In this document: positions 1,271 through 51,675 of the stretch, one piece after another
Numbering within the stretch: position 1 is the stretch's first letter
Layout of the letters: each line of letters begins with the position of its first letter
Assembly: GCA_049428765.1 (NCBI GenBank)
Contig: JBMTAN010000002.1
Span: 589 to 64,588 of the forward strand
DNA length: 64,000 bases
Direction: 5' to 3'
DNA from: Roseiflexaceae bacterium
Lineage (GTDB): Bacteria; Chloroflexota; Chloroflexia; Chloroflexales; Roseiflexaceae
Position numbers and translations under genes: made by a program
Notes under the pieces: model-generated
What the model was told of the DNA's origin: nothing
What the model saw: only the letters and a program-made list of their open reading frames with translations
The model's database searches: none

Positions 1271-2635
1271 ATGAAAACACTCATCACCAACGGTATTATC
1301 ATCGACCCCGATACACGGCAAACGGGCGTCGGGAGTGTGCTCATTGAGAACGGCACGGTAACCGCACGCTTTGACGGGCAACTCCCAGCTGATGCAAGCA
1401 TCCGCACCGCTCCCGGCACAACCGTGATTGACGCCAGCCACAAGCTTATCAGCCCGGGCCTGATAGATCTGCACGTCCATCTGCGCGAGCCCGGCGAAGA
1501 GCACAAAGAGACCATCGCCACCGGGACGCGCGCGGCGGCTGCCGGTGGCTTCACTGTGGTGGCCTGCATGCCCAACACGCGCCCTGCCATTGATAGTGTG
1601 GCCACTATTCAGCACATCGCCCAAGCTGCCGCGCGCGCCAACAATGCCGAGGTACTGCCGATTGCTGCCGCCACCGTTAGCCGTAATGGCAAAGAGTTAA
1701 GCCCAATGCGTGAGTTGGTAGAGGCCGGCGCCATCGGCTTCAGCGACGACGGCACACCGGTCAGCGATCCTGCCGTCATGCGCAATGTCTTTGAATACAT
1801 CAAAATGCTCGGCGTGCCCTACTTTGGTCACTGCGAAGATATGGTACTCAGCAAAGGCTGGGGCATGCACGAGGGTGCCGTGAGTAATCGGCTCGGACTA
1901 CCCGGATACCCTAGTGCCGCCGAAGAGGTCGGCATCGCCCGCGATATCGCCCTCGCCGAGTTGACCGACAGCCGTTTGCATGTCTGTCACGTCAGCACCG
2001 CTGGCGGCGTGGCCTTGATTCGGGCCGCCAAGGAACGCGGGGTCAAGGTCAGTGGCGAGGCCTGCCCCCACCACATCGTGCTGAGCGATCGCTGGGTACT
2101 CGGCTGGCTCGATGACCAAACCAATGCCGAGAATGAGCCCGGCATCTCGCTCAACTTAACCACTCGCCCACCATACGACACCAGCACGCGTGTCAGCCCG
2201 CCACTCCGCACCGAAGCAGACGCCGAGGCAGTGCTCCAAGGGTTACTCGACGGCACGCTCGACTTTGTGGCCACCGACCATGCACCACATAGCCGTGTCG
2301 ACAAAGAGGTCGAATACCGCCTCGCCATGGCCGGAATTACCGGTATCGAGACCGCATTGGCTAGCATGTTAATGCTCGTCAATCGTGGCCAAATGAGCCT
2401 GATTGACCTGATTGTCAAGATGACCGACGAACCTGCCAAGTTCCTCGGACGAGGCACAACTTCCTTGCGCGTTGGTGCCCGTGCCGACATCACCGTCATC
2501 GATCCACAAATGGTCTGGACCGTCGAAGCCGATAAGCTGTACTCTAAAGGCAAGAACACACCCCTCCTCGGCCAAAAAATGCGCGGCAAGGCCGTCTTGA
2601 CAATGTTCAAGGGCCATATCACCCACCAAGAGTAA
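1271..2635 (+). CDS. pyrC: dihydroorotase (long, amidohydrolase type)
   Basis: 454 aa with metal-ligand motifs DLHVHLREPG and ATDHAPH. It follows pyrB. Confidence 0.9.
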   Translation: MKTLITNGIIIDPDTRQTGVGSVLIENGTVTARFDGQLPADASIRTAPGTTVIDASHKLISPGLIDLHVHLREPGEEHKETIATGTRAAAAGGFTVVACMPNTRPAIDSVATIQHIAQAAARANNAEVLPIAAATVSRNGKELSPMRELVEAGAIGFSDDGTPVSDPAVMRNVFEYIKMLGVPYFGHCEDMVLSKGWGMHEGAVSNRLGLPGYPSAAEEVGIARDIALAELTDSRLHVCHVSTAGGVALIRAAKERGVKVSGEACPHHIVLSDRWVLGWLDDQTNAENEPGISLNLTTRPPYDTSTRVSPPLRTEADAEAVLQGLLDGTLDFVATDHAPHSRVDKEVEYRLAMAGITGIETALASMLMLVNRGQMSLIDLIVKMTDEPAKFLGRGTTSLRVGARADITVIDPQMVWTVEADKLYSKGKNTPLLGQKMRGKAVLTMFKGHITHQE

Positions 2636-2645
2636 ATAACACACC

Positions 2646-2676
2646 ATGGGGCAGGACTGATACAGTTCTGCCCCAT
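2646..2676 (+). terminator. hairpin after pyrC (ATGGGGCAG-N13-CTGCCCCAT)
   Basis: 9-bp inverted repeat 10 nt after the pyrC stop. The downstream T-tract is weak. Confidence 0.35.
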
Positions 2677-2697
2677 TCTGGTAATGAGAGATCACTA

Positions 2698-3348
2698 ATG
2701 ATTCAACGATATATGTGGACAAGTTATATCACGCCAATGGCTGCCATCGCACTAAGTCAACAGTTAAACATCCGTCATGCGTTGATTCGTGAGCGCATGC
2801 AGTCCCATGGCGTCAGTACCGCTGCACTCTTTCAACATCAGCAACAACTCTACGGCTACCTCGAGACCAATCAATCACTCGATACCCACGACCTCTGGTT
2901 CCCACTCGTCGGCGATTTGGTCCAACTCGTACCGACCACGCGCGGGACGCGCATTACCATCGATTTGCCCGATATCTACCACGACGGACATCCGAACGAG
3001 GGCACCCTGTGGCGTGCATCAGGGTACACACCGACCAAACAAATCGGATCACTCGCCCGGCTCAAACCTAAGATGTACTGCAGTTATGTCTATTACCATT
3101 ATCTACGCCAAGAGGAACAACCGCACGGGTTCAACAAGTACTACATCATCGGCGCCCACGAACATACCATCTTCTCATACCAAGAATGGCCAGCGACCGT
3201 TGACGACCCCAAACCACTCGGCACGATGCAGAGCAATCTCACGCCGACCAACTGGCAAGAGCTGATGCACGAACACTTCGAGTTATGGCCTAACCAGCCA
3301 GCCGAATCTCAGGAGTGGATTCGTCTGACCAAAGTATGGGGCATGTAA
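2698..3348 (+). CDS. hypothetical protein, 216 aa
   Basis: Long ORF with coding-like composition and no recognisable motif. The C-terminal half loosely recalls small alpha+beta-barrel sugar mutarotase-like proteins, which is a weak impression only. Confidence 0.6.
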   Translation: MIQRYMWTSYITPMAAIALSQQLNIRHALIRERMQSHGVSTAALFQHQQQLYGYLETNQSLDTHDLWFPLVGDLVQLVPTTRGTRITIDLPDIYHDGHPNEGTLWRASGYTPTKQIGSLARLKPKMYCSYVYYHYLRQEEQPHGFNKYYIIGAHEHTIFSYQEWPATVDDPKPLGTMQSNLTPTNWQELMHEHFELWPNQPAESQEWIRLTKVWGM

Positions 3349-3349
3349 A

Positions 3350-4528
3350 CTAGCGATCACCTCTTTGCATGGCAGTCACAGTAGGCGTAAGTGTCACGAT
3401 AATTGCTCGTCGTCGTGTTGCTGTTCTTGTTCGTGTTGCTGTTCTCGTTATTGTACGTGAAATTGCCGTCCGCGTCCGTGCTGCCACTGCTGTAGCAGTC
3501 TTCTGACCATTTGTTAATGTACGTGTAGCTGTCACTAGCGGGGTGAATGTGGCAGTTGGAGTTGACGTATCACTTGGGGTAACGGTTGATGTGGCGCTCG
3601 ACGTTACAGTAGGGGTAAATGTCGGCGTATTACTTGGCGTCGCAGTCGCAGTTGGCGTCGATGTCCATGTCGGCGTATTACTTGGTGTCGATGTCCATGT
3701 CGGCGTATTACTTGGCGTCGCAGTCGCAGTTGGCGTCGATGTCCATGTCCAGGTCGGTGTGTTGCTCGGCGTGAATGTTGAAGTTGCAGTCACTGTACTC
3801 GTCGACAAATTCCCTTGCCACAAGCGCAACGCCTCACTACTGGTCAAAGCCCGATCATACATACGCACAAGTGGCACGCCTCCAGTAATTCCACGACCAG
3901 AGACACTGCTATTACCAATCCACGTATTGTTTGTTGGGATGAGTGGAAGCCCATAATATGATGAGTGCTGTAGCACACCATTGACATATACAACCACTTG
4001 CGCATTACTATCTATCGTCACAACCACGTGATATGGAGTACCTATACTGACTAAAAAACCCGTATCGATCGGGGCATGCCCCATATATTGCACCTGAATT
4101 GTCATACTGCCACCGTTTGATTTCACTACGATGCCATACCCATTCCCAGCTGATTCATTCCCGTTATACAACACAGTCTGTGTGTCATTCATATTGTCGA
4201 AAATATAAAATACTGCCTCCATACTGACATCATACTGTGCAGATGTCACTAATGGAGCCAGACCATATCCATCATACTCAAAATACATATCACCATATTC
4301 GCCACTAAATCCACTAGTATACCAACTGAAGTAGTCTTGATACCATGTCCCATTCAGTTGCACATGTTTATTCGCACCCGAAAGGTCGTTCCACATGTTC
4401 CCTCCGATATATGAGGAGCTATTATTTGCCTGCACCCAAAAAATCGGGCCACCCGTCGCCTGTAATTGATATGGCAAAAGCCCAAATATCATCAATGCTA
4501 CCATCATCACACCAACGAAGTGCCTCAT
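3350..4528 (-). CDS. secreted protein: signal peptide, LamG/concanavalin-like lectin-type domain, Pro/Thr repeat linker, Arg/Thr-rich tail
   Basis: N-terminal hydrophobic signal [30 protein letters not shown] lies 7 nt upstream of the ATG. The beta-rich middle carries [12 protein letters not shown] repeats. The sequence is visibly AT-richer than its neighbours. Confidence 0.7.
3621..3746. repeat. in-frame tandem repeat inside the LamG-like gene (48 nt, 30 nt, 48 nt)
   Basis: 3621-3668 and 3699-3746 are identical 48-mers. 3669-3698 is the same unit with an 18-nt deletion. Together they encode the PT-rich linker. Confidence 0.85.
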
Positions 4529-8852: not shown

Positions 8853-9479
8853 TTACTCATCTGCAATCCGCCGGAACCATTGATGCATCCAGGCTGGTGC
8901 ACTCTCAATATCACGTAACAGAGCTTTACGGCTCACTGACGATAATTGCTGACGTAATATACTCACATGATCGTCATTCACCAGCGCATCACCAAGATAA
9001 CGCAATGCCTGAATCAAAATACCGCTCGTGCGCCCTGCACACTGTAAATAGCGTGGGGCGGCTGGACGTATTCGTATGACAACATCGGCAAGTTGAATAA
9101 CACGGGTCGTATCTGCGCTTAATAATACCACCTCGGCCGGAGGTGTTGGCACAAGACCAAGCAGGTAGCACGCATATGCTCCACTTGGTACGAGTGGTAC
9201 TATCTGGTCATCGTTGAGCGCATCAATTATTGATGCCAGTTTCACTGGCACCTCACCAACGACGGGTAATTGCTGCGGGAACACATAAAGACCGTGTGCA
9301 ATACGACGGATGACGCCCTTTTTGGCGAGTCGACCGAGTGCCTGATCAAGTGTGTTACGTGGTGCAAGACCACGTAGTCGCCCAGCATGCCAAACACTCC
9401 CCCGACCTGCCCGGCGCATACGTGCCAAAATCTGTTGTTCAACTGGTGTTGCATCAGCTGATGACGACAAAGGAGGCAT
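8853..9479 (-). CDS. AbiEi-antitoxin-like / DUF6088-like winged-helix protein
   Basis: 208 aa. The N-terminal pattern LDQALGRLAKKGVIRRIAHGLYVFPQ resembles AbiEi_4/DUF6088 N-terminal domains. No AbiEii-type nucleotidyltransferase gene is adjacent. Confidence 0.5.
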   Translation of the reverse strand: MPPLSSSADATPVEQQILARMRRAGRGSVWHAGRLRGLAPRNTLDQALGRLAKKGVIRRIAHGLYVFPQQLPVVGEVPVKLASIIDALNDDQIVPLVPSGAYACYLLGLVPTPPAEVVLLSADTTRVIQLADVVIRIRPAAPRYLQCAGRTSGILIQALRYLGDALVNDDHVSILRQQLSSVSRKALLRDIESAPAWMHQWFRRIADE

Positions 9480-46302: not shown

Positions 46303-47406
46303 ATGCGTACCTGTAGCATCATTGGCGCTAGCCTACTCAGTTTGATTGCGGTGCCGGCGCTGGCATTCGCCGTCGTGTTCTACGGCTTCGCCCAGATTGT
46401 ACTGGGGTCACCGTCGTTTGTGGCCAAACTCGAGCCGGCCAACATCGAGGCTCAAATCCGCAAGGCGGCACCCTATCTCGTGGCGAGCGCGCTGACCAAC
46501 CCGAACGACCCGGACAACCAGCAACTCGTCAACGACCTTCTCCCCGATCCGGCCATGCGAGCTATGGTCACGACGCTGATGCCGATGCTTCTCGAGGTGA
46601 CCAACGGTGATTTGTCGAGTGCATCGCTGGCCCAACTCGATAGTCATATCACCCAAATCATCGCTCAAGCACCACCCTGTAGCGCCGAGGTCGAGGCGGC
46701 GTATGCCCAAGCCATCGCTGGCACGGGGACACTCCCAGGCGAACTCTGTCGCCCTAGCGACGCCGTGCTTGCGCTCAAGATGGCAACGCGCTTGGCCGAT
46801 GAGCTACGGCAACTCTTCGATGGAATCGCCCAAGCGCCATTGACGACGCCCGACGGTGACACCGCACTTTCACCACAGCTGATGAGCCAAGATATCACAG
46901 CCTCGATTGCGGCGGTGCGCGCCAACGCAGGCCAAGGCTTCATTCTGCCGTTAACGCTGATTGTGCTAATACTGGCCTTGGCGGTACGGTCGCTCCGCGA
47001 ATTATTGGGCTGGAGCGGCGGCATCCTGTTGTTTGCCGGCTTGATTGGGCTCGGCGTAGCATTTGCCAGCGGATCACTGTTGGCCATCGATTGGCAGTCC
47101 ACATTCCGCCAAGAGCTCCAAGGTCCCGAGCTGAATCTGGCACTCATCGTGTTCGAACTCTTCGACACCGACGCCTTTGGACCCTTGGTGTCATGGATCA
47201 ATACGGTCAACGGCGGGATGGCGATTGGCGGGCTAGTGGCCATGATTGCCAGTGCATTCTTGCCCCGACCCGTACGCCTAGCCACAGCGCCGGTCGGGGC
47301 AGACCCGTCGGTCGGGGCCATTCCCACCATGCCCGGCGGTGCGCAGATGCAGGACCCAGGGGCCACACAACCGATTCCGACCGGGGATGGTGAACGCAAA
47401 GAGTAG
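46303..47406 (+). CDS. hypothetical membrane protein (367 aa)
   Basis: GAAGGAGG lies upstream. One N-terminal TM segment and a C-terminal cluster of TM segments are present. No recognisable domain. Confidence 0.7.
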   Translation: MRTCSIIGASLLSLIAVPALAFAVVFYGFAQIVLGSPSFVAKLEPANIEAQIRKAAPYLVASALTNPNDPDNQQLVNDLLPDPAMRAMVTTLMPMLLEVTNGDLSSASLAQLDSHITQIIAQAPPCSAEVEAAYAQAIAGTGTLPGELCRPSDAVLALKMATRLADELRQLFDGIAQAPLTTPDGDTALSPQLMSQDITASIAAVRANAGQGFILPLTLIVLILALAVRSLRELLGWSGGILLFAGLIGLGVAFASGSLLAIDWQSTFRQELQGPELNLALIVFELFDTDAFGPLVSWINTVNGGMAIGGLVAMIASAFLPRPVRLATAPVGADPSVGAIPTMPGGAQMQDPGATQPIPTGDGERKE

Positions 47407-47424
47407 ATAGCCACACGCCCTGTG

Positions 47425-47709
47425 CTAGTGACAGATAAGCGTCTGTAAGTAGTGCAGGGCGTGACGGTGAATGGGGAGATTGGAGGGATGCCATACGGGT
47501 TCGTGAATGACGACGATAGTCCAATCTCCTTCGTCGTATCCTGCGGCAAGTTGATCTACCGGCATCGCAAAAAAGAGTTTTGCATCGATGTCGGTATGAT
47601 ATAAATGTTTTGGAAAATCTCCCGCATAAATGAGCACTTCTTCTGTCGCTTCTGGTTGAGCATGCCACGCAATTGTGCAACGATACATGGTGTCTGATTG
47701 AATCTTCAT
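47425..47709 (-). CDS. hypothetical 94-aa protein
   Basis: Start refined to MKIQSDTMYRC, with AAAGAGG 5 nt upstream. It is AT-rich, soluble and His-rich at the C-terminus. It is divergent from the DUF2075 gene. Confidence 0.5.
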   Translation of the reverse strand: MKIQSDTMYRCTIAWHAQPEATEEVLIYAGDFPKHLYHTDIDAKLFFAMPVDQLAAGYDEGDWTIVVIHEPVWHPSNLPIHRHALHYLQTLICH

Positions 47710-47741
47710 GGGCACCTCTTTGATAAAAAAATACACATCAC

Positions 47742-47770
47742 TTGATCTTTTGGCCATTCATCCCTATAAT
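47742..47770 (+). promoter_or_regulatory. sigma-70-like promoter TTGATC-17 nt-TATAAT for the DUF2075 gene
   Basis: Read directly, 36 nt before the ATG at 47806. Confidence 0.5.
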
Positions 47771-47805
47771 CGCACTAATTACGTTATTCGTATAGGCCAA
47801 AAATC

Positions 47806-49776
47806 ATGACAAATGCACACGCCTGGCATGGCACCTTCGCTGCTTTTTTGCAAACGCCAGATACCACATTAATTGAACTGTTCCGTGCACATCATCGTAA
47901 GTCTAGTGTGGAGCAACCCTCACAATCTCACGAAACTGCATGGCGTGATTCTTGGAAAGTATTACGTACAACATTTCAACAACTGATTAATCTTCATGCT
48001 GAAGCCAATCAATGGTTTGTCGTATTTGAATATGAACTCCCGCGTGAACGTGGTCGGCGGCCTGATGCCATTATTTTGACTGGACGAAGCATGTTTGTGC
48101 TTGAGTTCAAAGGCTATGGCTACATTGATAATGCGCATGTCGATCAGGTACACGCATATGTGCGTGATTTTGTAGCATACCATAGCACATCGCATGCTTA
48201 TGCAGGTGCAATGTTGCCAATTCTTGTACCCACACGCATGAAACTCACACGGCAATCGCGCAATATTGTGCAAATTGTCTCACCTGACTTCCTTGCTGAT
48301 ACACTGTGGGATTTCTACTCACGCGGTCAAGCCACAGGGCTATTGGATGAATCTTGGCTCAACGGCGAGTACGAGCCACTCCCCACATTGGTGCGAGCTG
48401 CACGAATTATTTTCAATAACGAACCGTTCCCTCACATCCGTCGTGCCGCGAGTAGTGGTGTCGAAGATGCCATGAAGTATGCGATTAAAGTAGCGGAAGC
48501 AGCTGAAGCACGACAAGAACGCCATCTCGTGCTCATCACTGGGGTGCCTGGCGCTGGCAAAACGCTCGTGGGCATTCGCTTTGTTTATGAATATGCCGCA
48601 GAGCACAGTGATGAACGAAATAAAGCGATTATGTTGAGTGGTAACGGCCCCTTAGTCAACGTGCTCCAACACGCACTTCGTAGCCGAGTATTTGTCCAAG
48701 ATGTCCACGGATTTCTCAAAACGTACACGCGTGAGGGCGTACGACCACCCAAAGAACACATTATTATTTATGACGAAGCACAACGTGCCTGGGATGCGGA
48801 ACGCTCTGCAGAAAAGCGCGGGACGTCGTATTCCGAGCCTGACGATTTTCTCCTGATTGGCAGTCGCCAACGCGATTGGTCGATGATGATTGCCCTCATT
48901 GGTCAAGGTCAAGAGATTCATTTAGGCGAAGAGGCTGGACTTAGTCAGTGGAATACCGCTGTGCACAATGCCAAACAACTCACCGGCACGAGCTGGATTG
49001 TGCACACACCAAAACGACTTTCACATGTCTTTGCGGATGCAGACAAGCTGTATGTGAGCGACAAACTCGACCTTGATCAATCATTGCGTTCACATGTCGC
49101 CGAAGAAGTGCAGGAGTGGGTTTCTACGCTACTCAATGGCACAAATGCCGTGCTCGTTGATGGCCAAAAGCCACGCTTTGATGCCAGTGTTATCCAAAAA
49201 ACGCAACAGCTCAGCAAAGCTATTAAAGCCGATGGATTTGTGTTGTATGTGACGCGTGATATTGAGTTAGCCAAAACATACGCACAACACCGGTATGTTG
49301 GAGAGTATGACAAACGCTATGGATTACTCGCATCATCCAAAGCAAAATGTTTGTCACAATTTGGCATCGACAACGACTTTCAAGCAACTCGTCGCCTACG
49401 TGAGGGGCCATGGTTTAATGACGAACCATCATCGCCATATTCGTGTTGTCAACTAGATGCAGTCGCCACTGAATTCGCCTGCCAAGGGCTTGAACTCGAC
49501 CTGCCTATTGTCTGCTGGGGTGACGATGTGCGATTTGTACGTGGGCAATGGGTGACGCCACCAATGAATCGTTCCAGTGCCAAAGATCCACACCGATTGC
49601 GTGTTAACGCCTATCGTGTCTTGCTTTCACGCGGTCGAGACGGCATGGTCATCTTTGTACCACCCATCCCCACACTCGACGAAACGTTTGCGTTACTCGT
49701 ACAAGCTGGGTGTGATGTTCTCTCACAAGACGCCCCCACCACTGAGCTCCCGTATGCCCTGGCCCTCACCCCCTAA
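47806..49776 (+). CDS. PD-(D/E)xK nuclease-like N-terminal domain fused to a DUF2075 / Schlafen-group-3-like SF1 helicase ATPase
   Basis: 656 aa. The N-terminus has FEYE...RPDAIIL...VLEFK. The helicase part has Walker A ITGVPGAGKT, motif II IIIYDEAQ, LIGQGQEI and C-terminal YRVLLSRGRDGMVIF. The gene is visibly AT-rich. Confidence 0.85.
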   Translation: MTNAHAWHGTFAAFLQTPDTTLIELFRAHHRKSSVEQPSQSHETAWRDSWKVLRTTFQQLINLHAEANQWFVVFEYELPRERGRRPDAIILTGRSMFVLEFKGYGYIDNAHVDQVHAYVRDFVAYHSTSHAYAGAMLPILVPTRMKLTRQSRNIVQIVSPDFLADTLWDFYSRGQATGLLDESWLNGEYEPLPTLVRAARIIFNNEPFPHIRRAASSGVEDAMKYAIKVAEAAEARQERHLVLITGVPGAGKTLVGIRFVYEYAAEHSDERNKAIMLSGNGPLVNVLQHALRSRVFVQDVHGFLKTYTREGVRPPKEHIIIYDEAQRAWDAERSAEKRGTSYSEPDDFLLIGSRQRDWSMMIALIGQGQEIHLGEEAGLSQWNTAVHNAKQLTGTSWIVHTPKRLSHVFADADKLYVSDKLDLDQSLRSHVAEEVQEWVSTLLNGTNAVLVDGQKPRFDASVIQKTQQLSKAIKADGFVLYVTRDIELAKTYAQHRYVGEYDKRYGLLASSKAKCLSQFGIDNDFQATRRLREGPWFNDEPSSPYSCCQLDAVATEFACQGLELDLPIVCWGDDVRFVRGQWVTPPMNRSSAKDPHRLRVNAYRVLLSRGRDGMVIFVPPIPTLDETFALLVQAGCDVLSQDAPTTELPYALALTP

Positions 49777-49781
49777 CCCAC

Positions 49782-50663
49782 CTACTCCTCTCCCCACCAG
49801 CCTTGGCGGCGGAAGAACCAGAGCAACACGGTACTGGCCACCACCATCACCGCCAAGGCGAACGGATAGCCCCATGTCCATTGCAACTCGGGCATCACGC
49901 TGAAGTTCATGCCATAAATGCCGGCCACCATCGAGTTGACCATCAAAATAATTGAGGCCATGGTCAGCACCTTCATCACCTGATTCAGCCGATTCGACTG
50001 CACCGACAAATGCACGTCCAGCACCGTGGCCAGCAAATCGCGGTGCAAGTCGATTGCATCCACGATGCGCAACACGTGATCATATACGTCTTGCATATGC
50101 GTAAAGGCCGCCGTGTCGAGCACCAACAAATCGCCGCGCAACAGCGCATTCAATGCCTCACGCGCCGGTGCAATTTGGCGGCGAATCGTCAGCAACATGC
50201 GCTTGAGATGCACAATCTCGCGTAGTTGATGCGCCTGCGCCCCCACCAACATCTCGGTCTCGAGCGTCTCGACCAGGTCGCCGATATGGTCGAGCATGGG
50301 GAAGTAGCTATCCACAATCGTATCCAAAATCACGTGCAACAGCCCAGCCACACTCAACGACGGCACATCGCGCAACGACTGCCAGCGGGTGCGGGCATCG
50401 TTCATTACCGTCAAATCACCACTGTGAATAGTTATCACCTGCGTGGCCGTGACAAACAAATAAATCGGTATGGAATGCAGTTTTTCTTTGCTACGCCCGT
50501 GATAGCTCAAGGCATAAAAAACAAAGAACACCCCGTGCTCGTAGCGCTCAATCTTGGTGCGCTGCCCACCCTTAAGGATGTCGTCGATAATCAACGGGTG
50601 CAGGCCAATCTCCTGCAATTGCGCCTGGGTGGGCTTGATAATATCGACCCATAACTCGTCCAT
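49782..50663 (-). CDS. corA: CorA family magnesium/cobalt transporter
   Basis: Start refined to MDELWVDII, with GAGGAG upstream. YGMNF motif and two C-terminal TM helices. Confidence 0.9.
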   Translation of the reverse strand: MDELWVDIIKPTQAQLQEIGLHPLIIDDILKGGQRTKIERYEHGVFFVFYALSYHGRSKEKLHSIPIYLFVTATQVITIHSGDLTVMNDARTRWQSLRDVPSLSVAGLLHVILDTIVDSYFPMLDHIGDLVETLETEMLVGAQAHQLREIVHLKRMLLTIRRQIAPAREALNALLRGDLLVLDTAAFTHMQDVYDHVLRIVDAIDLHRDLLATVLDVHLSVQSNRLNQVMKVLTMASIILMVNSMVAGIYGMNFSVMPELQWTWGYPFALAVMVVASTVLLWFFRRQGWWGEE

Positions 50664-50778
50664 GTGCGCTCCTCGTGTGTATGCCTTGATTGCCCTATTA
50701 TGCCAGCAAAAACGCCATCGCCCGAGTCCACCATGGTACAATTCGTCTGATACGACTCTCCAGATAGACGAGGAGCGC

Positions 50779-51675
50779 ATGAGTCACTACGAATACGCCA
50801 CGCCTGAGAACTTTCTCGGGCTCGAAGGCGATATCGCCAGCTACGAACAAGCCCAGGTATTAGTCTTGCCAATCCCCTACGAGGCCACCGTCAGCTTCGG
50901 CCAAGGTGCCCGTGGCGGCCCGCGCGCCATCATCAACGCCTCGCGCCAGGTCGAGCTGTATGACCGCGAGTTCGACTGCGAATACGCCTTCGAATATGGC
51001 GTCCACACCCTGCCTGCCCTGGCTCCCCACACCGCCGGCCCCGAGGCCATGGTCAACGCCATCGAGGCCTGCGCCCGCGAGCACATGGCCACCGGCAAAC
51101 TCCTCGTAGGCCTCGGCGGCGAGCACAGCATCTCCAGCGGCTTTGGTCGCGCCATCAAGGCCATCCACGGCGACTTCGTGCTGGTCCAAATCGACGCCCA
51201 CAGCGACCTGCGCGACAGCTACGAGGGGAGCCCCTACAGTCACGCCAGTGTGGCCCGCCGTATCGCCGATTTGGGCGCCCCCATCCTGCAATTCGGCATC
51301 CGCTCCATCTGCCAAGAGGAGATGGACTATATCCGCGCCACGCCCGCCACCACCCGCGTCTGGTTCAACGACGACGTCCATGCCGGCGGCCACTTGCCCG
51401 AGCTGATCGAGCGCATCAAGGGCAAAAAGGTCTTTTTGACCATCGACGTCGACGGCCTCGACCCTAGCATCATCCCGGCTACCGGCACGCCCGAGCCCAA
51501 CGGCTTGAGCTGGATTCAGACCCTCGAGATTGTCCGCACCGTCAGCCAACACGCCGAGGTGGTCGCATTCGACTGCGTCGAGTTGGCGCCCATCGCCGGC
51601 ATGCACTCGAGCGACTTTATTACCGCCAAGCTCATCTACAAGGTGATGAACCTGATTATGGCCAATCGCGCCTAG
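50779..51675 (+). CDS. speB: agmatinase (ureohydrolase family)
   Basis: Start refined to MSHYEYATPENF. Mn-binding motifs GGEHSIS, QIDAHSDLR and TIDVDGLDP. Confidence 0.9.
   Translation: MSHYEYATPENFLGLEGDIASYEQAQVLVLPIPYEATVSFGQGARGGPRAIINASRQVELYDREFDCEYAFEYGVHTLPALAPHTAGPEAMVNAIEACAREHMATGKLLVGLGGEHSISSGFGRAIKAIHGDFVLVQIDAHSDLRDSYEGSPYSHASVARRIADLGAPILQFGIRSICQEEMDYIRATPATTRVWFNDDVHAGGHLPELIERIKGKKVFLTIDVDGLDPSIIPATGTPEPNGLSWIQTLEIVRTVSQHAEVVAFDCVELAPIAGMHSSDFITAKLIYKVMNLIMANRA

Follow-up and report, generated by a model that had tools for sequence, protein, structure and literature searches.

Two divergent genes make up a low-GC3 islet at positions 47407–49781 of the window, the window being the whole 64-kb stretch of Roseiflexaceae DNA that was analysed. 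The larger gene (47806–49776, forward strand) encodes a 656-aa nuclease-helicase of the Nhi-like family, recognized from its open reading frame (ORF), from the PADLOC model PDC-S41 and by BLASTP. The smaller one (47425–47709, reverse strand) encodes an acidic 94-aa protein with no assigned function, which is restricted to this lineage and whose position and sequence are kept in relatives. According to the ORF list, the pair is wedged between the 3′ ends of an upstream gene (ending at 47406) and a reverse-strand CorA gene (ending at 49782), with gaps of 18 and 5 nt. Genes for iol catabolism, a membrane protein, CorA and agmatinase flank the islet, and no other defence gene adjoins it among the ORFs and Pfam matches of the 64-kb window.

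The islet deviates from its surroundings in composition. Measured in steps of 500 nt, GC content drops from about 0.60 to 0.42–0.52 within 47500–49500; the islet as a whole has a GC content of 0.486, compared with 0.555 for the remainder of the window, and the lowest-GC 2-kb stretch of the window (0.473) lies inside it. Its z-score against all non-overlapping 2.4-kb blocks of the window is only about −2.0, because the composition of the window is heterogeneous. GC3 is more informative than overall GC: it is 0.438 in the helicase gene and 0.463 in the small ORF, as opposed to 0.70–0.81 in the flanks and 0.70–0.85 across seven neighbouring genes, and the helicase value is the third-lowest of the 50 long ORFs in the window (mean of 0.609 and s.d. 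of 0.088). The initial annotation, made from the letters, had described the stretch as AT-richer than both flanks and as tightly inserted between two gene ends, and both descriptions hold when the values are computed.

A σ70-type promoter for the helicase gene, TTGATC-17-TATAAT, was located by consensus scan at 47742–47770 (forward strand). The window contains a single copy of this exact pattern, against 0.02 expected by chance, and both hexamers and the distance between them stay unchanged in five diverged lineages, one of which has an intergenic region of 339 nt; the near-consensus promoter proposed at the outset is therefore present, unique in the window and conserved. Purifying selection on the helicase gene is strong (dN/dS of 0.04–0.09). 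At the convergent junction of the membrane-protein gene and the small ORF, a strong hairpin spans 47410–47468 (inverted repeat I2 at 47414–47463; minimum free energy (MFE) of −36.2 kcal/mol and z-score of −6.9 relative to shuffled sequences). It is without a U-tract and possibly serves as a transcription stop. Terminator-like sites at 48151 and 48391, inside the helicase gene, were disregarded, as their frequency is that expected by chance.

The iol-downstream slot and its history

Deviant composition and a pair of genes wedged tightly between its neighbours are what recently inserted mobile-element cargo (an integrative island, a transposon or a prophage remnant) would leave, and homologs of the helicase are carried on Bacillus megaplasmids and on one phage-like contig. 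However, no integrase, transposase or other mobility gene was found at the islet; the repeat search gave just the junction hairpin, and neither direct nor inverted repeats enclose the islet; and in the whole window Rfam (at gathering thresholds) and ARAGORN returned no match and no tRNA. PHROGs match the 656-aa protein at the P-loop level only, through a Zot-like profile. Moreover, the gene pair keeps the same place relative to iolG2 in relatives whose flanking iol genes are 84–93% identical, and this position is kept even across lineages with saturated synonymous divergence. A recent insertion of this kind is thus very unlikely. Of the earlier description of the islet as horizontally acquired, the compositional deviation stands; mobility genes, a tRNA and flanking repeats are absent and the position is shared with relatives. 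Any transfer of the gene pair would be old, since those marks are lacking and related genomes hold it in the same place.

The contents of this slot differ among relatives within a Roseiflexaceae clade, comprising an Nhi-like gene, an EcoRII/Dcm system together with an Nhi-like gene, or a type II restriction enzyme. The Nhi-like ortholog of one relative, L002, lies beside the EcoRII/Dcm system. Because relatives hold EcoRII and Dcm or a type II enzyme there, the slot downstream of the iol operon is a local defence hot spot. It constitutes a small natural experiment, in which one chromosomal site carries different defence contents in different relatives.

Domains and family of the 656-aa protein

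The sequence motifs named in the initial annotation (E...D...E-F-K, Walker A, DEAQ and VLLSRGRDG) are all located in the 656-aa protein, with FEYELPRERGRRPDAIIL at residues 74–91, LEFKG at 99–103, GVPGAGKT at 246–253, DEAQ at 323–326 and VLLSRGRDG at 605–613. The AF2 model of the protein has a pLDDT of 87.9. The N-terminal domain, composed of approximately residues 1–190 (47806–48375, forward strand), is assigned to the PD-(D/E)xK type on the basis of invariant residues, weak Pfam matches and fold. The candidate catalytic residues E75, D87, E100 and K102 and the helix Q114...Y118 are invariant across 52 homologs, as are Walker A and Walker B. Residues 64–122 give weak Pfam matches to HSDR_N and NERD, and the model of the domain (pLDDT of 87.9) has a β-β-β-α-β core. 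The leading Foldseek matches of the domain are all PD-(D/E)xK nucleases (VC1899, Cdn1, Can2, Bax1, Hjc and McrC), each individually weak (E values of 8e-3 to 0.2, none at or below 1e-3 and none significant). The domain is accordingly predicted to be restriction-endonuclease-like, and the nuclease core first suggested by the E...D...E-x-K arrangement agrees with both the conservation and the modelled fold, the best Foldseek E value being just 8e-3.

The DUF2075 domain, a Schlafen-group-3-type SF1 ATPase-helicase, is composed of residues 239–619 (48520–49662, forward strand) and matches almost the entire Pfam profile PF09848 (E value of 3.2e-64, positions 1–353 of 354), which confirms the helicase assignment made earlier. 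Walker A (GVPGAGKT) is encoded at 48541–48564 and Walker B (DEAQ) at 48772–48783, both on the forward strand. In Foldseek the domain is structurally similar to SLFN11 (PDB entry 7zel, E value of 6.5e-11), SLFN14 (9jr9, 1.3e-8) and RecD (2e-8), and also to Dda, Upf1 and Dna2. No solved structure of a close relative exists; querying the PDB by sequence, whether with this protein alone or with a profile built from 52 sequences, returned P-loop-level noise only (KaiC, McrB, and spurious RfaH and TrkA matches). Pfam detects no modification-reader domain (SRA, PUA or DUF3427) within the protein, and residues 126–235 have no domain assignment.

The PADLOC model PDC-S41 matches the protein along nearly its full length (E value of 1.3e-125, residues 5–627 on positions 4–632 of 657). 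BLASTP aligns residues 5–412 with residues 3–399 of the Nhi-like protein SG141 (34% identity and E value of 9e-73), a direct comparison that covered the N-terminal 399 of the 611 residues of SG141. With tblastn, residues 5–631 (96% of the query) align with a homolog on a Bacillus cereus plasmid, which is 89% identical to SG141 and itself matches PDC-S41 with an E value of 2.3e-115. Because this 89%-identical B. cereus plasmid protein matches PDC-S41, PDC-S41 and Nhi-like are the same family. SG141, from Bacillus cereus FSL H8-0482, has been experimentally verified as a defence protein, cloned as a single-gene fragment of 2331 bp (Millman et al. 2022, 10.1101/2022.05.11.491447). PDC-S41 is a PADLOC-DB v2 candidate derived from guilt-by-embedding and listed as unvalidated (Payne et al., 10.1101/2024.01.29.577857), and our literature search found no mention of it by name.

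The initial reading of the gene as a nuclease and DUF2075-helicase defence gene of Nhi type is therefore upheld by homology to a verified protein, as well as by the PADLOC match. The term Nhi-like applies to the family of that name, which has no sequence identity to Nhi (Millman et al. 2022, 10.1101/2022.05.11.491447); it does not extend to Nhi sensu stricto, for which the PADLOC model covers the P-loop region alone (residues 239–331, E value of 3e-4). The PADLOC model of AbiO likewise reveals no sequence homology beyond the P-loop. The further statement that no such system is described for Chloroflexota does not stand: the Nhi-like homolog table of Millman et al. includes Chloroflexi genomes (10.1101/2022.05.11.491447), a PADLOC model exists, and named Chloroflexota homologs were found. 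Judged by its sequence, the 656-aa protein has a probability of roughly 0.78 of being an anti-phage nuclease-helicase that works as a single protein, belongs to the Nhi-like family (PADLOC PDC-S41) and acts by the mechanism proposed below. Its target specificity may differ from that of the verified protein, as the two are just 34% identical. The gene is an ordinary new member of the family and not a new kind of system.

Homologs number more than 4000 and are approximately 50% identical across bacterial phyla and archaea, with 553 confirmed loci in species-representative genomes. Of 80 family loci from multiple phyla, at most 11 share any one neighbour family, the largest such cluster being NUDIX/SRA-HNH (11 of the 80). 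Type IV restriction enzymes are found among the neighbours, as are DpdF-, MkoA- and PsyrT-like proteins, DUF3427/HNH proteins and small NUDIX hydrolases, the PADLOC scan having covered 141 neighbouring proteins; as the survey was made without a matched control set, this enrichment in defence genes is qualitative. One homolog (P0117) is fused to a NUDIX domain, and the copies on Bacillus megaplasmids adjoin an HNH protein, an NTP pyrophosphohydrolase and a second DUF2075 gene. The contexts are thus non-conserved and often beside defence genes, rather than conserved housekeeping ones.

This distribution bears on whether the protein could be a housekeeping nuclease-helicase for repair or recombination, of the RecD, Dna2 or AddAB kind, that merely looks foreign. 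RecD, Dna2 and Upf1 are among its closest folds, the clade has passed the locus on by vertical inheritance, and metabolic genes adjoin it in the window. Yet the phyletic spread is patchy, with the same level of identity between distant phyla and archaea, the neighbourhoods are wholly unconserved, GC3 sets the gene apart from its neighbours, one relative has a restriction enzyme at the same locus, and a homolog is verified as anti-phage. NCBIfam gives sub-threshold P-loop matches only for the protein, with no housekeeping equivalog. A housekeeping role is extremely improbable, and the Nhi-like assignment is retained in what follows.

The divergent 94-aa ORF

The small ORF is listed at 47425–47757 (reverse strand) with 110 aa, and has 94 aa when read from the ATG at 47709; this ATG is backed as the real start by homologs and by a GAGGTG Shine-Dalgarno sequence read from the DNA. 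The gene is under purifying selection (dN/dS of 0.21) and evolves fast, with 57% identity where the helicase has 93%. Its product has a pI of 4.0–5.6 and is acidic in all 11 homologs. No match was detected in Pfam, PADLOC, NCBIfam, PHROGs or PDB sequences, and no regulator, antitoxin or inhibitor family was recognized. Among 5.8 billion proteins, its family comprises 13 clusters at 90% identity and three at 50%, all from this lineage. An exhaustive profile search gave three further candidates (P0136–P0138), which on inspection of their sequences proved to be tandem-repeat or low-complexity proteins (16, 4 and 5 stretches matched) and were discarded as artefacts. An HTH-type regulator was also rejected, as an HTH match is absent and all homologs are acidic.

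Wherever enough sequence is available from close relatives, the two genes stay together and divergent (the window, L001–L006, L011, L012 and L095/96), and in L001 their starts are just 74 nt apart, so that the promoters must overlap there. Such an arrangement would suit a two-gene module, in which the divergent pair forms a functional unit in this lineage and the 94-aa protein acts as a regulator, as a sensor adaptor, or as an immunity factor or inhibitor by which host DNA is spared from the nuclease. Purifying selection on a fast-evolving gene fits this proposal, as does the presence of a restriction-type gene beside the small ORF wherever it is found. So does the uniform acidity, since nuclease inhibitors and DNA mimics are often acidic. 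However, one gene suffices in the verified B. cereus case, and none of the neighbour families counted in the 80 loci is the small ORF. The ORF is missing from L007–L009, where the helicase relative is 58% identical, and is found without an adjacent helicase beside a type II restriction enzyme (L093/94) and a C5 methylase (L097/98). With known regulator, antitoxin and inhibitor families unmatched as well, the two-gene module is quite unlikely.

The small ORF is a real gene, a lineage-specific resident of the iol slot and not a required component of the system. The suggestion that it might be a partner or regulator of the helicase does not carry over to the family: co-occurrence is not observed across the 80 loci, its clusters are few, and its presence without the helicase, together with the absence of a conserved partner in those loci, argues that it is not a general partner. 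More speculatively still, the 94-aa protein might be a lineage-specific modulator of restriction-type nucleases (a self-protecting inhibitor, a DNA mimic or an adaptor) that marks, and travels with, the iol-downstream hot spot. Such a role, if real, would account for the small ORF beside three DNA-targeting systems (Nhi-like, type II enzyme and C5 methylase) and for a divergence several times faster than that of its neighbours.

Proposed mechanism and comparison with known systems

The Nhi-like protein would be made constitutively. Its DUF2075 motor may hydrolyse ATP to move along, or unwind, invading DNA, which the N-terminal nuclease would then cut. The cue that distinguishes phage from host is most likely DNA modification, because phages escape the B. 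cereus Nhi-like protein by loss of their own cytosine methylase (10.1101/2022.08.27.505566), and because the family has type IV, DUF3427/HNH and NUDIX neighbours and a NUDIX fusion. These neighbours agree with the published hint of action on modified phage DNA and give a testable direction. As the L002 ortholog lies beside an EcoRII/Dcm system, this ortholog, at least, cannot attack m5C DNA indiscriminately.

The same family might instead respond to phage replication intermediates or to SSB or other replication proteins, as does staphylococcal Nhi, and degrade replicating phage DNA. The architecture is identical to that of Nhi (PD-(D/E)xK and DUF2075), escape from Nhi maps to core replication proteins, the 656-aa protein is without a modification-reader domain, and an ortholog coexists with a Dcm-type methylase. 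Set against this, sequence similarity to Nhi is detected in the P-loop only, phages escape the closer verified relative through methylase loss, and members of the family are associated with DUF3427, NUDIX and type IV restriction genes. A replication trigger is therefore unlikely, though it deserves some weight, and a modification cue remains our preferred reading.

Among known systems, the group III Schlafens SLFN11 and SLFN14 share the C-terminal PF09848 helicase and are the best structural matches, although PDB sequence searches did not retrieve SLFNs. Whereas the Schlafen core (AlbA_2) is a tRNA-cleaving RNase, the N terminus of the window protein is of the PD-(D/E)xK DNase type, and Pfam gives no AlbA_2 match in it at E values up to 0.1. 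McrBC-type (type IV) enzymes are comparable only by a works-like analogy, as an NTPase motor with a PD-(D/E)xK nuclease directed against modified foreign DNA. The matches to McrB are weak and at P-loop level, and McrC appears in the fold search with the N-terminal domain; however, homology does not go beyond the P-loop and a generic nuclease fold, and the window protein, whose motor is of the SF1 ATPase type and not an AAA+ GTPase, is without an identified modification-reading domain. Nhi (SERP2475 of Staphylococcus epidermidis; Bari et al. 2022, 10.1101/776245) also joins an N-terminal PD-(D/E)xK domain and a DUF2075 SF1 helicase in a single polypeptide, with the same presumed chemistry, and differs in sequence outside the P-loop region and in its reported trigger, replication proteins as opposed to a methylase.

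The closest counterpart is SG141. The two proteins are collinear over the 399 residues of SG141 that were compared, of similar size (611 and 656 aa) and each encoded by a single gene with its own promoter, and have in common the FEYE...RRPD...E-x-K nuclease motif, Walker A, DEAQRAWD and GxGQEI. The Roseiflexaceae protein, from a metagenome-assembled genome (MAG), differs in belonging to another phylum, in its divergent sequence, in having a divergently oriented, lineage-specific 94-aa neighbour, and in lying in a metabolic chromosomal context rather than on a megaplasmid. A phage-defence specialist would find nothing surprising here. The result does justify annotating the gene confidently as an Nhi-like defence nuclease-helicase, instead of a hypothetical or DUF2075 protein. 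PDC-S41 is the model that would annotate it automatically, and the correspondence of this candidate to the validated Nhi-like family changes how PDC-S41 counts in defence censuses are to be read.

Composition and layout of the locus

The AT-rich islet contains the gene of the 656-aa nuclease-helicase (47806-49776, + strand; hereafter the helicase) and a divergent small ORF on the − strand, first listed at 47425-47757. The islet is faced by the 3′ ends of a 367-aa membrane-protein gene (stop at 47406, 18-nt gap) and of corA (49782-50780, − strand, 5-nt gap). The ORFs, gaps, GC content, promoter and motifs were rechecked and agree with the coordinates and sequence features of the initial annotation, with all of the protein motifs at the positions that it gave. 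In 500-nt windows, GC content drops from approximately 0.60 in the flanks to 0.42-0.52 in the islet, which holds the lowest-GC 2-kb stretch of the window and has a GC content of 0.486, against 0.555 in the remaining window. Because the window is heterogeneous, this deviation corresponds to a z-score of only approximately −2. GC at third codon positions (GC3) bears out the claimed AT-richness more tellingly, with values of 0.44 for the helicase, the third-lowest among the window's 50 long ORFs, and 0.46 for the small ORF, compared with 0.70-0.85 for seven neighbouring genes.

The lowest GC3 of the window (0.39) belongs to a gene for a 208-aa DUF6088/AbiEi_4-like protein, an AbiE antitoxin-type regulator (8853-9479, − strand). 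No AbiEii-type partner is evident among the immediately adjoining long ORFs, an apiosidase-like gene and a zinc-ribbon/TM2 protein. The other gene with a marked AT shift encodes a 392-aa Laminin_G_3 (concanavalin-like) protein (3350-4528, − strand; GC3 of 0.42) and explains a second GC trough near 2500-3500.

Low helicase GC3 recurs in four lineages (0.44 in the window, 0.33 in L001:8001-9968, 0.31 in L006:4828-6795 and 0.43 in L011:703-2673, the latter three being loci in other genomes), with flanks at 0.63-0.81 and with synonymous sites saturated between the lineages (dS of 2.3-3.6). A relative with 58% identity to the helicase (locus L007) has a host-like GC3 of 0.66. It seems that the helicase is actively kept AT-rich, and that this is not the fading trace of a transfer.

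The near-consensus promoter noted previously was recovered by consensus scan (TTGATC-17-TATAAT, 47742-47770), and this exact pattern occurs only once in the 64 kb, against 0.02 expected. Both hexamers (−35 and −10) and the distance between them are unchanged in five lineages, one of which has a 339-nt spacer upstream. Past the −10 box, the helicase 5′ leader (47771-47805 and the homologous positions in L001, L006, L011 and L095) carries a TTACGT and, separately named, an ATAGG block, both constant in these five lineages. The leader is better conserved than the small ORF coding sequence and may contain an operator or other leader element. A very stable hairpin (47410-47468; −36.2 kcal/mol, z-score of −6.9) is found where the small ORF and the convergent membrane-protein gene meet. 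It covers the last approximately 13 codons of the small ORF, a C-terminal extension absent from 79-aa homologues, and has a U-tract on neither strand.

Family assignment and domain structure of the helicase

The Schlafen-group-3/DUF2075 helicase domain expected from the motifs was detected by Pfam at residues 239-619 (E = 3e-64), together with weak nuclease matches (HSDR_N and NERD) at residues 64-122. Within the PADLOC library, the candidate model PDC-S41 matched over the full length (E = 1.3e-125), and the Nhi and AbiO models matched the P-loop region only (E of approximately 1e-3 to 1e-4). Millman et al. 2022 (supplement) cloned the experimentally verified 'Nhi-like' protein SG141 of Bacillus cereus FSL H8-0482 (611 aa) on a fragment of 2331 bp that carries this single gene. 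Over the first 399 of its 611 residues, which the comparison covered, SG141 is collinear with the window protein (residues 5-412 aligned to 3-399, 34% identity, E = 9e-73), and the two have in common the blocks FEYE..RRPD..E-x-K, GxPGAGKT, SGNGPLV, DEAQRAWD and IGxGQEI. For the family assignment, this alignment with the SG141 of Millman et al. 2022 is the decisive link. A 611-aa B. cereus megaplasmid protein, 89% identical to SG141 and covering 96% of the window protein's length, is assigned by PADLOC to PDC-S41 (E = 2.3e-115) rather than to Nhi, its match to the 'Nhi' model being at the P-loop level only. PDC-S41 therefore corresponds to the Nhi-like family of Millman et al. 2022, and the window gene is a member.

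A confident AlphaFold2 model of the whole protein (52 homologues; pLDDT of 87.9) matches SLFN11 (E = 6.5e-11), SLFN14, RecD, Dda, Upf1 and Dna2, which indicates a predicted SF1-type two-lobe motor. The N-terminal 235 residues modelled alone also reached a pLDDT of 87.9 and gave no significant match in a PDB search. For this region, a PD-(D/E)xK nuclease core had been proposed. The leading fold matches (VC1899, Cdn1, Can2/Card1, Bax1, Hjc, McrC, EndoMS and R.BspD6I) are all PD-(D/E)xK nucleases, with E-values of 8e-3 to 0.2, none significant; residues E75, D87, E100, K102, Q114 and Y118 are invariant family-wide and map to the expected strands and helix. The modelled nuclease assignment is sound but not proven. 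Strong purifying selection acts on the helicase (dN/dS of 0.04-0.09).

The small ORF and its genomic slot

The small ORF starts at an ATG at 47709, preceded by GAGGTG, and encodes 94 residues. It is a real gene, with a dN/dS of 0.21 against its closest relative. Its exact sequence is annotated in a Roseiflexaceae metagenome-assembled genome. It evolves fast (57% identity where the helicase has 93%, and 77% where the helicase has 96%) and is acidic in every homologue (pI 4.0-5.6). No match was detected in Pfam, PADLOC, NCBIfam, PHROGs or PDB sequences. Its family comprises 13 clusters in 5.8 billion proteins; an exhaustive profile search found three clusters at 50% identity, and the other three matches were repeat artefacts.

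Relatives with 84-93% identical iol genes carry the same divergent pair (helicase 82% identical, small ORF 42%) directly downstream of iolG2, in varying surroundings. At L002, an EcoRII-like restriction enzyme and a Dcm-type methylase (L002:586-3001) lie between iolG2 and the pair, followed by a duplicated 3′ fragment of iolG2 (L002:3086-3235, 74% over 50 residues), an arrangement that suggests cassette insertion into this slot. In L001 and L006, sulfotransferase and glycosyltransferase genes replace corA. At L093/94 (L093:2-730), next to the iol operon, the small ORF follows a type II restriction enzyme gene (PADLOC REase_II, E = 1e-73) at a distance of 17 nt, with no adjacent helicase, the contigs ending just upstream; at L097/98 (L097:38-919) it stands beside a C5 DNA methylase and a 114-aa gene, again with no adjacent helicase. 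The conserved pair and place, with restriction genes at the slot, therefore identify a local defence hot spot and vertical inheritance of the pair within the clade. No integrase, tRNA or bracketing repeats were found at the islet. The small ORF had been suggested as a partner; with 13 clusters and occurrences apart from an adjacent helicase, it is not part of a family-wide system. Within this lineage, it might act as a modulator of nearby nucleases.

Family neighbourhoods and relation to known systems

The family has more than 4000 homologues, many of them approximately 50% identical across Proteobacteria, Actinomycetota, Armatimonadota, Chloroflexota and methanogenic archaea, with 553 confirmed loci in a scan of species-representative genomes. 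In 36 of the 63 loci that exceed 8 kb in length, the gene departs from the GC content of its flanks by over 3 points, downwards in 29 and upwards in 7. Among 51 plasmid records with a match, 47 are B. cereus-group megaplasmids. On these, as at L099 (B. cereus plasmid pb1, NZ_CP095378.1 32577-50370), genes for a second DUF2075 helicase, an HNH endonuclease, an NTP pyrophosphohydrolase and an HD-domain protein are a few kb away from the Nhi-like gene. Among 50,697 phage records, the sole match is a full-length homologue (28.5% identity, 96% coverage; MT836127.1 10072-12009) on a 12.7-kb contig from human faeces that is labelled 'Bacteriophage sp.' and carries no annotation.

Homologues placed mainly in conserved housekeeping neighbourhoods would count against a defence role, and the neighbourhoods of 80 loci (723 ORFs within 6 kb) are clearly not of this kind: neighbour families occur in at most three loci each, with one exception in 11. 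This cluster brings together SRA-like/HNH proteins and NUDIX hydrolases of a small, MutT-like type, linked via a fusion of the two modules (L062:8059-9543). One or both kinds of protein are encoded within 3 kb of the helicase in L023, L025, L026, L031, L032, L033, L051, L055, L057, L060 and L062, which span several bacterial phyla and one archaeon. Protein P0117 is itself an Nhi-like-NUDIX fusion, and the neighbourhood may represent a modified-nucleotide-directed multi-gene variant of the Nhi-like system. In a qualitative survey, tallied without a matched control set, of the 141 neighbours at 28 loci, the matches comprise methyl-directed restriction enzymes of type IV, DUF3427 and further DUF2075 proteins and DpdF-, MkoA-, PsyrT- and Cas3-like helicases, as well as clearly metabolic genes.

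The analysis shows that the window protein belongs to the family, has its nuclease and ATPase residues intact, is selectively constrained and is encoded behind a conserved promoter. It would use ATP-driven translocation or unwinding, coupled to cutting of invading DNA. DNA modification is the best lead for the discriminating cue, and the type IV restriction enzymes, DUF3427/HNH proteins and NUDIX hydrolases that recur near the family agree with it. A crude model in which any m5C is the target is contradicted at L002, where the orthologue coexists with the Dcm-type methylase. A trigger like that of staphylococcal Nhi, namely replication proteins or intermediates, is a live alternative.

The initial annotation considered such a system undescribed in Chloroflexota-like hosts; this host-range novelty fails because the SG141 homologue table (a single sheet) already includes Chloroflexi, as well as archaeal, genomes (Millman et al. 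2022). Three residual curiosities are the persistence of low GC3 despite saturated synonymous sites, the small acidic ORF and the hot spot. PADLOC-DB v2 calls PDC-S41 an unvalidated candidate, and censuses that do so miscount a validated family. On sequence grounds, the window gene is best described as a divergent addition to the known, validated Nhi-like family. It belongs by sequence to Nhi-like/PDC-S41, resembles Nhi in architecture only, and has the helicase domain alone in common with eukaryotic group III Schlafens.
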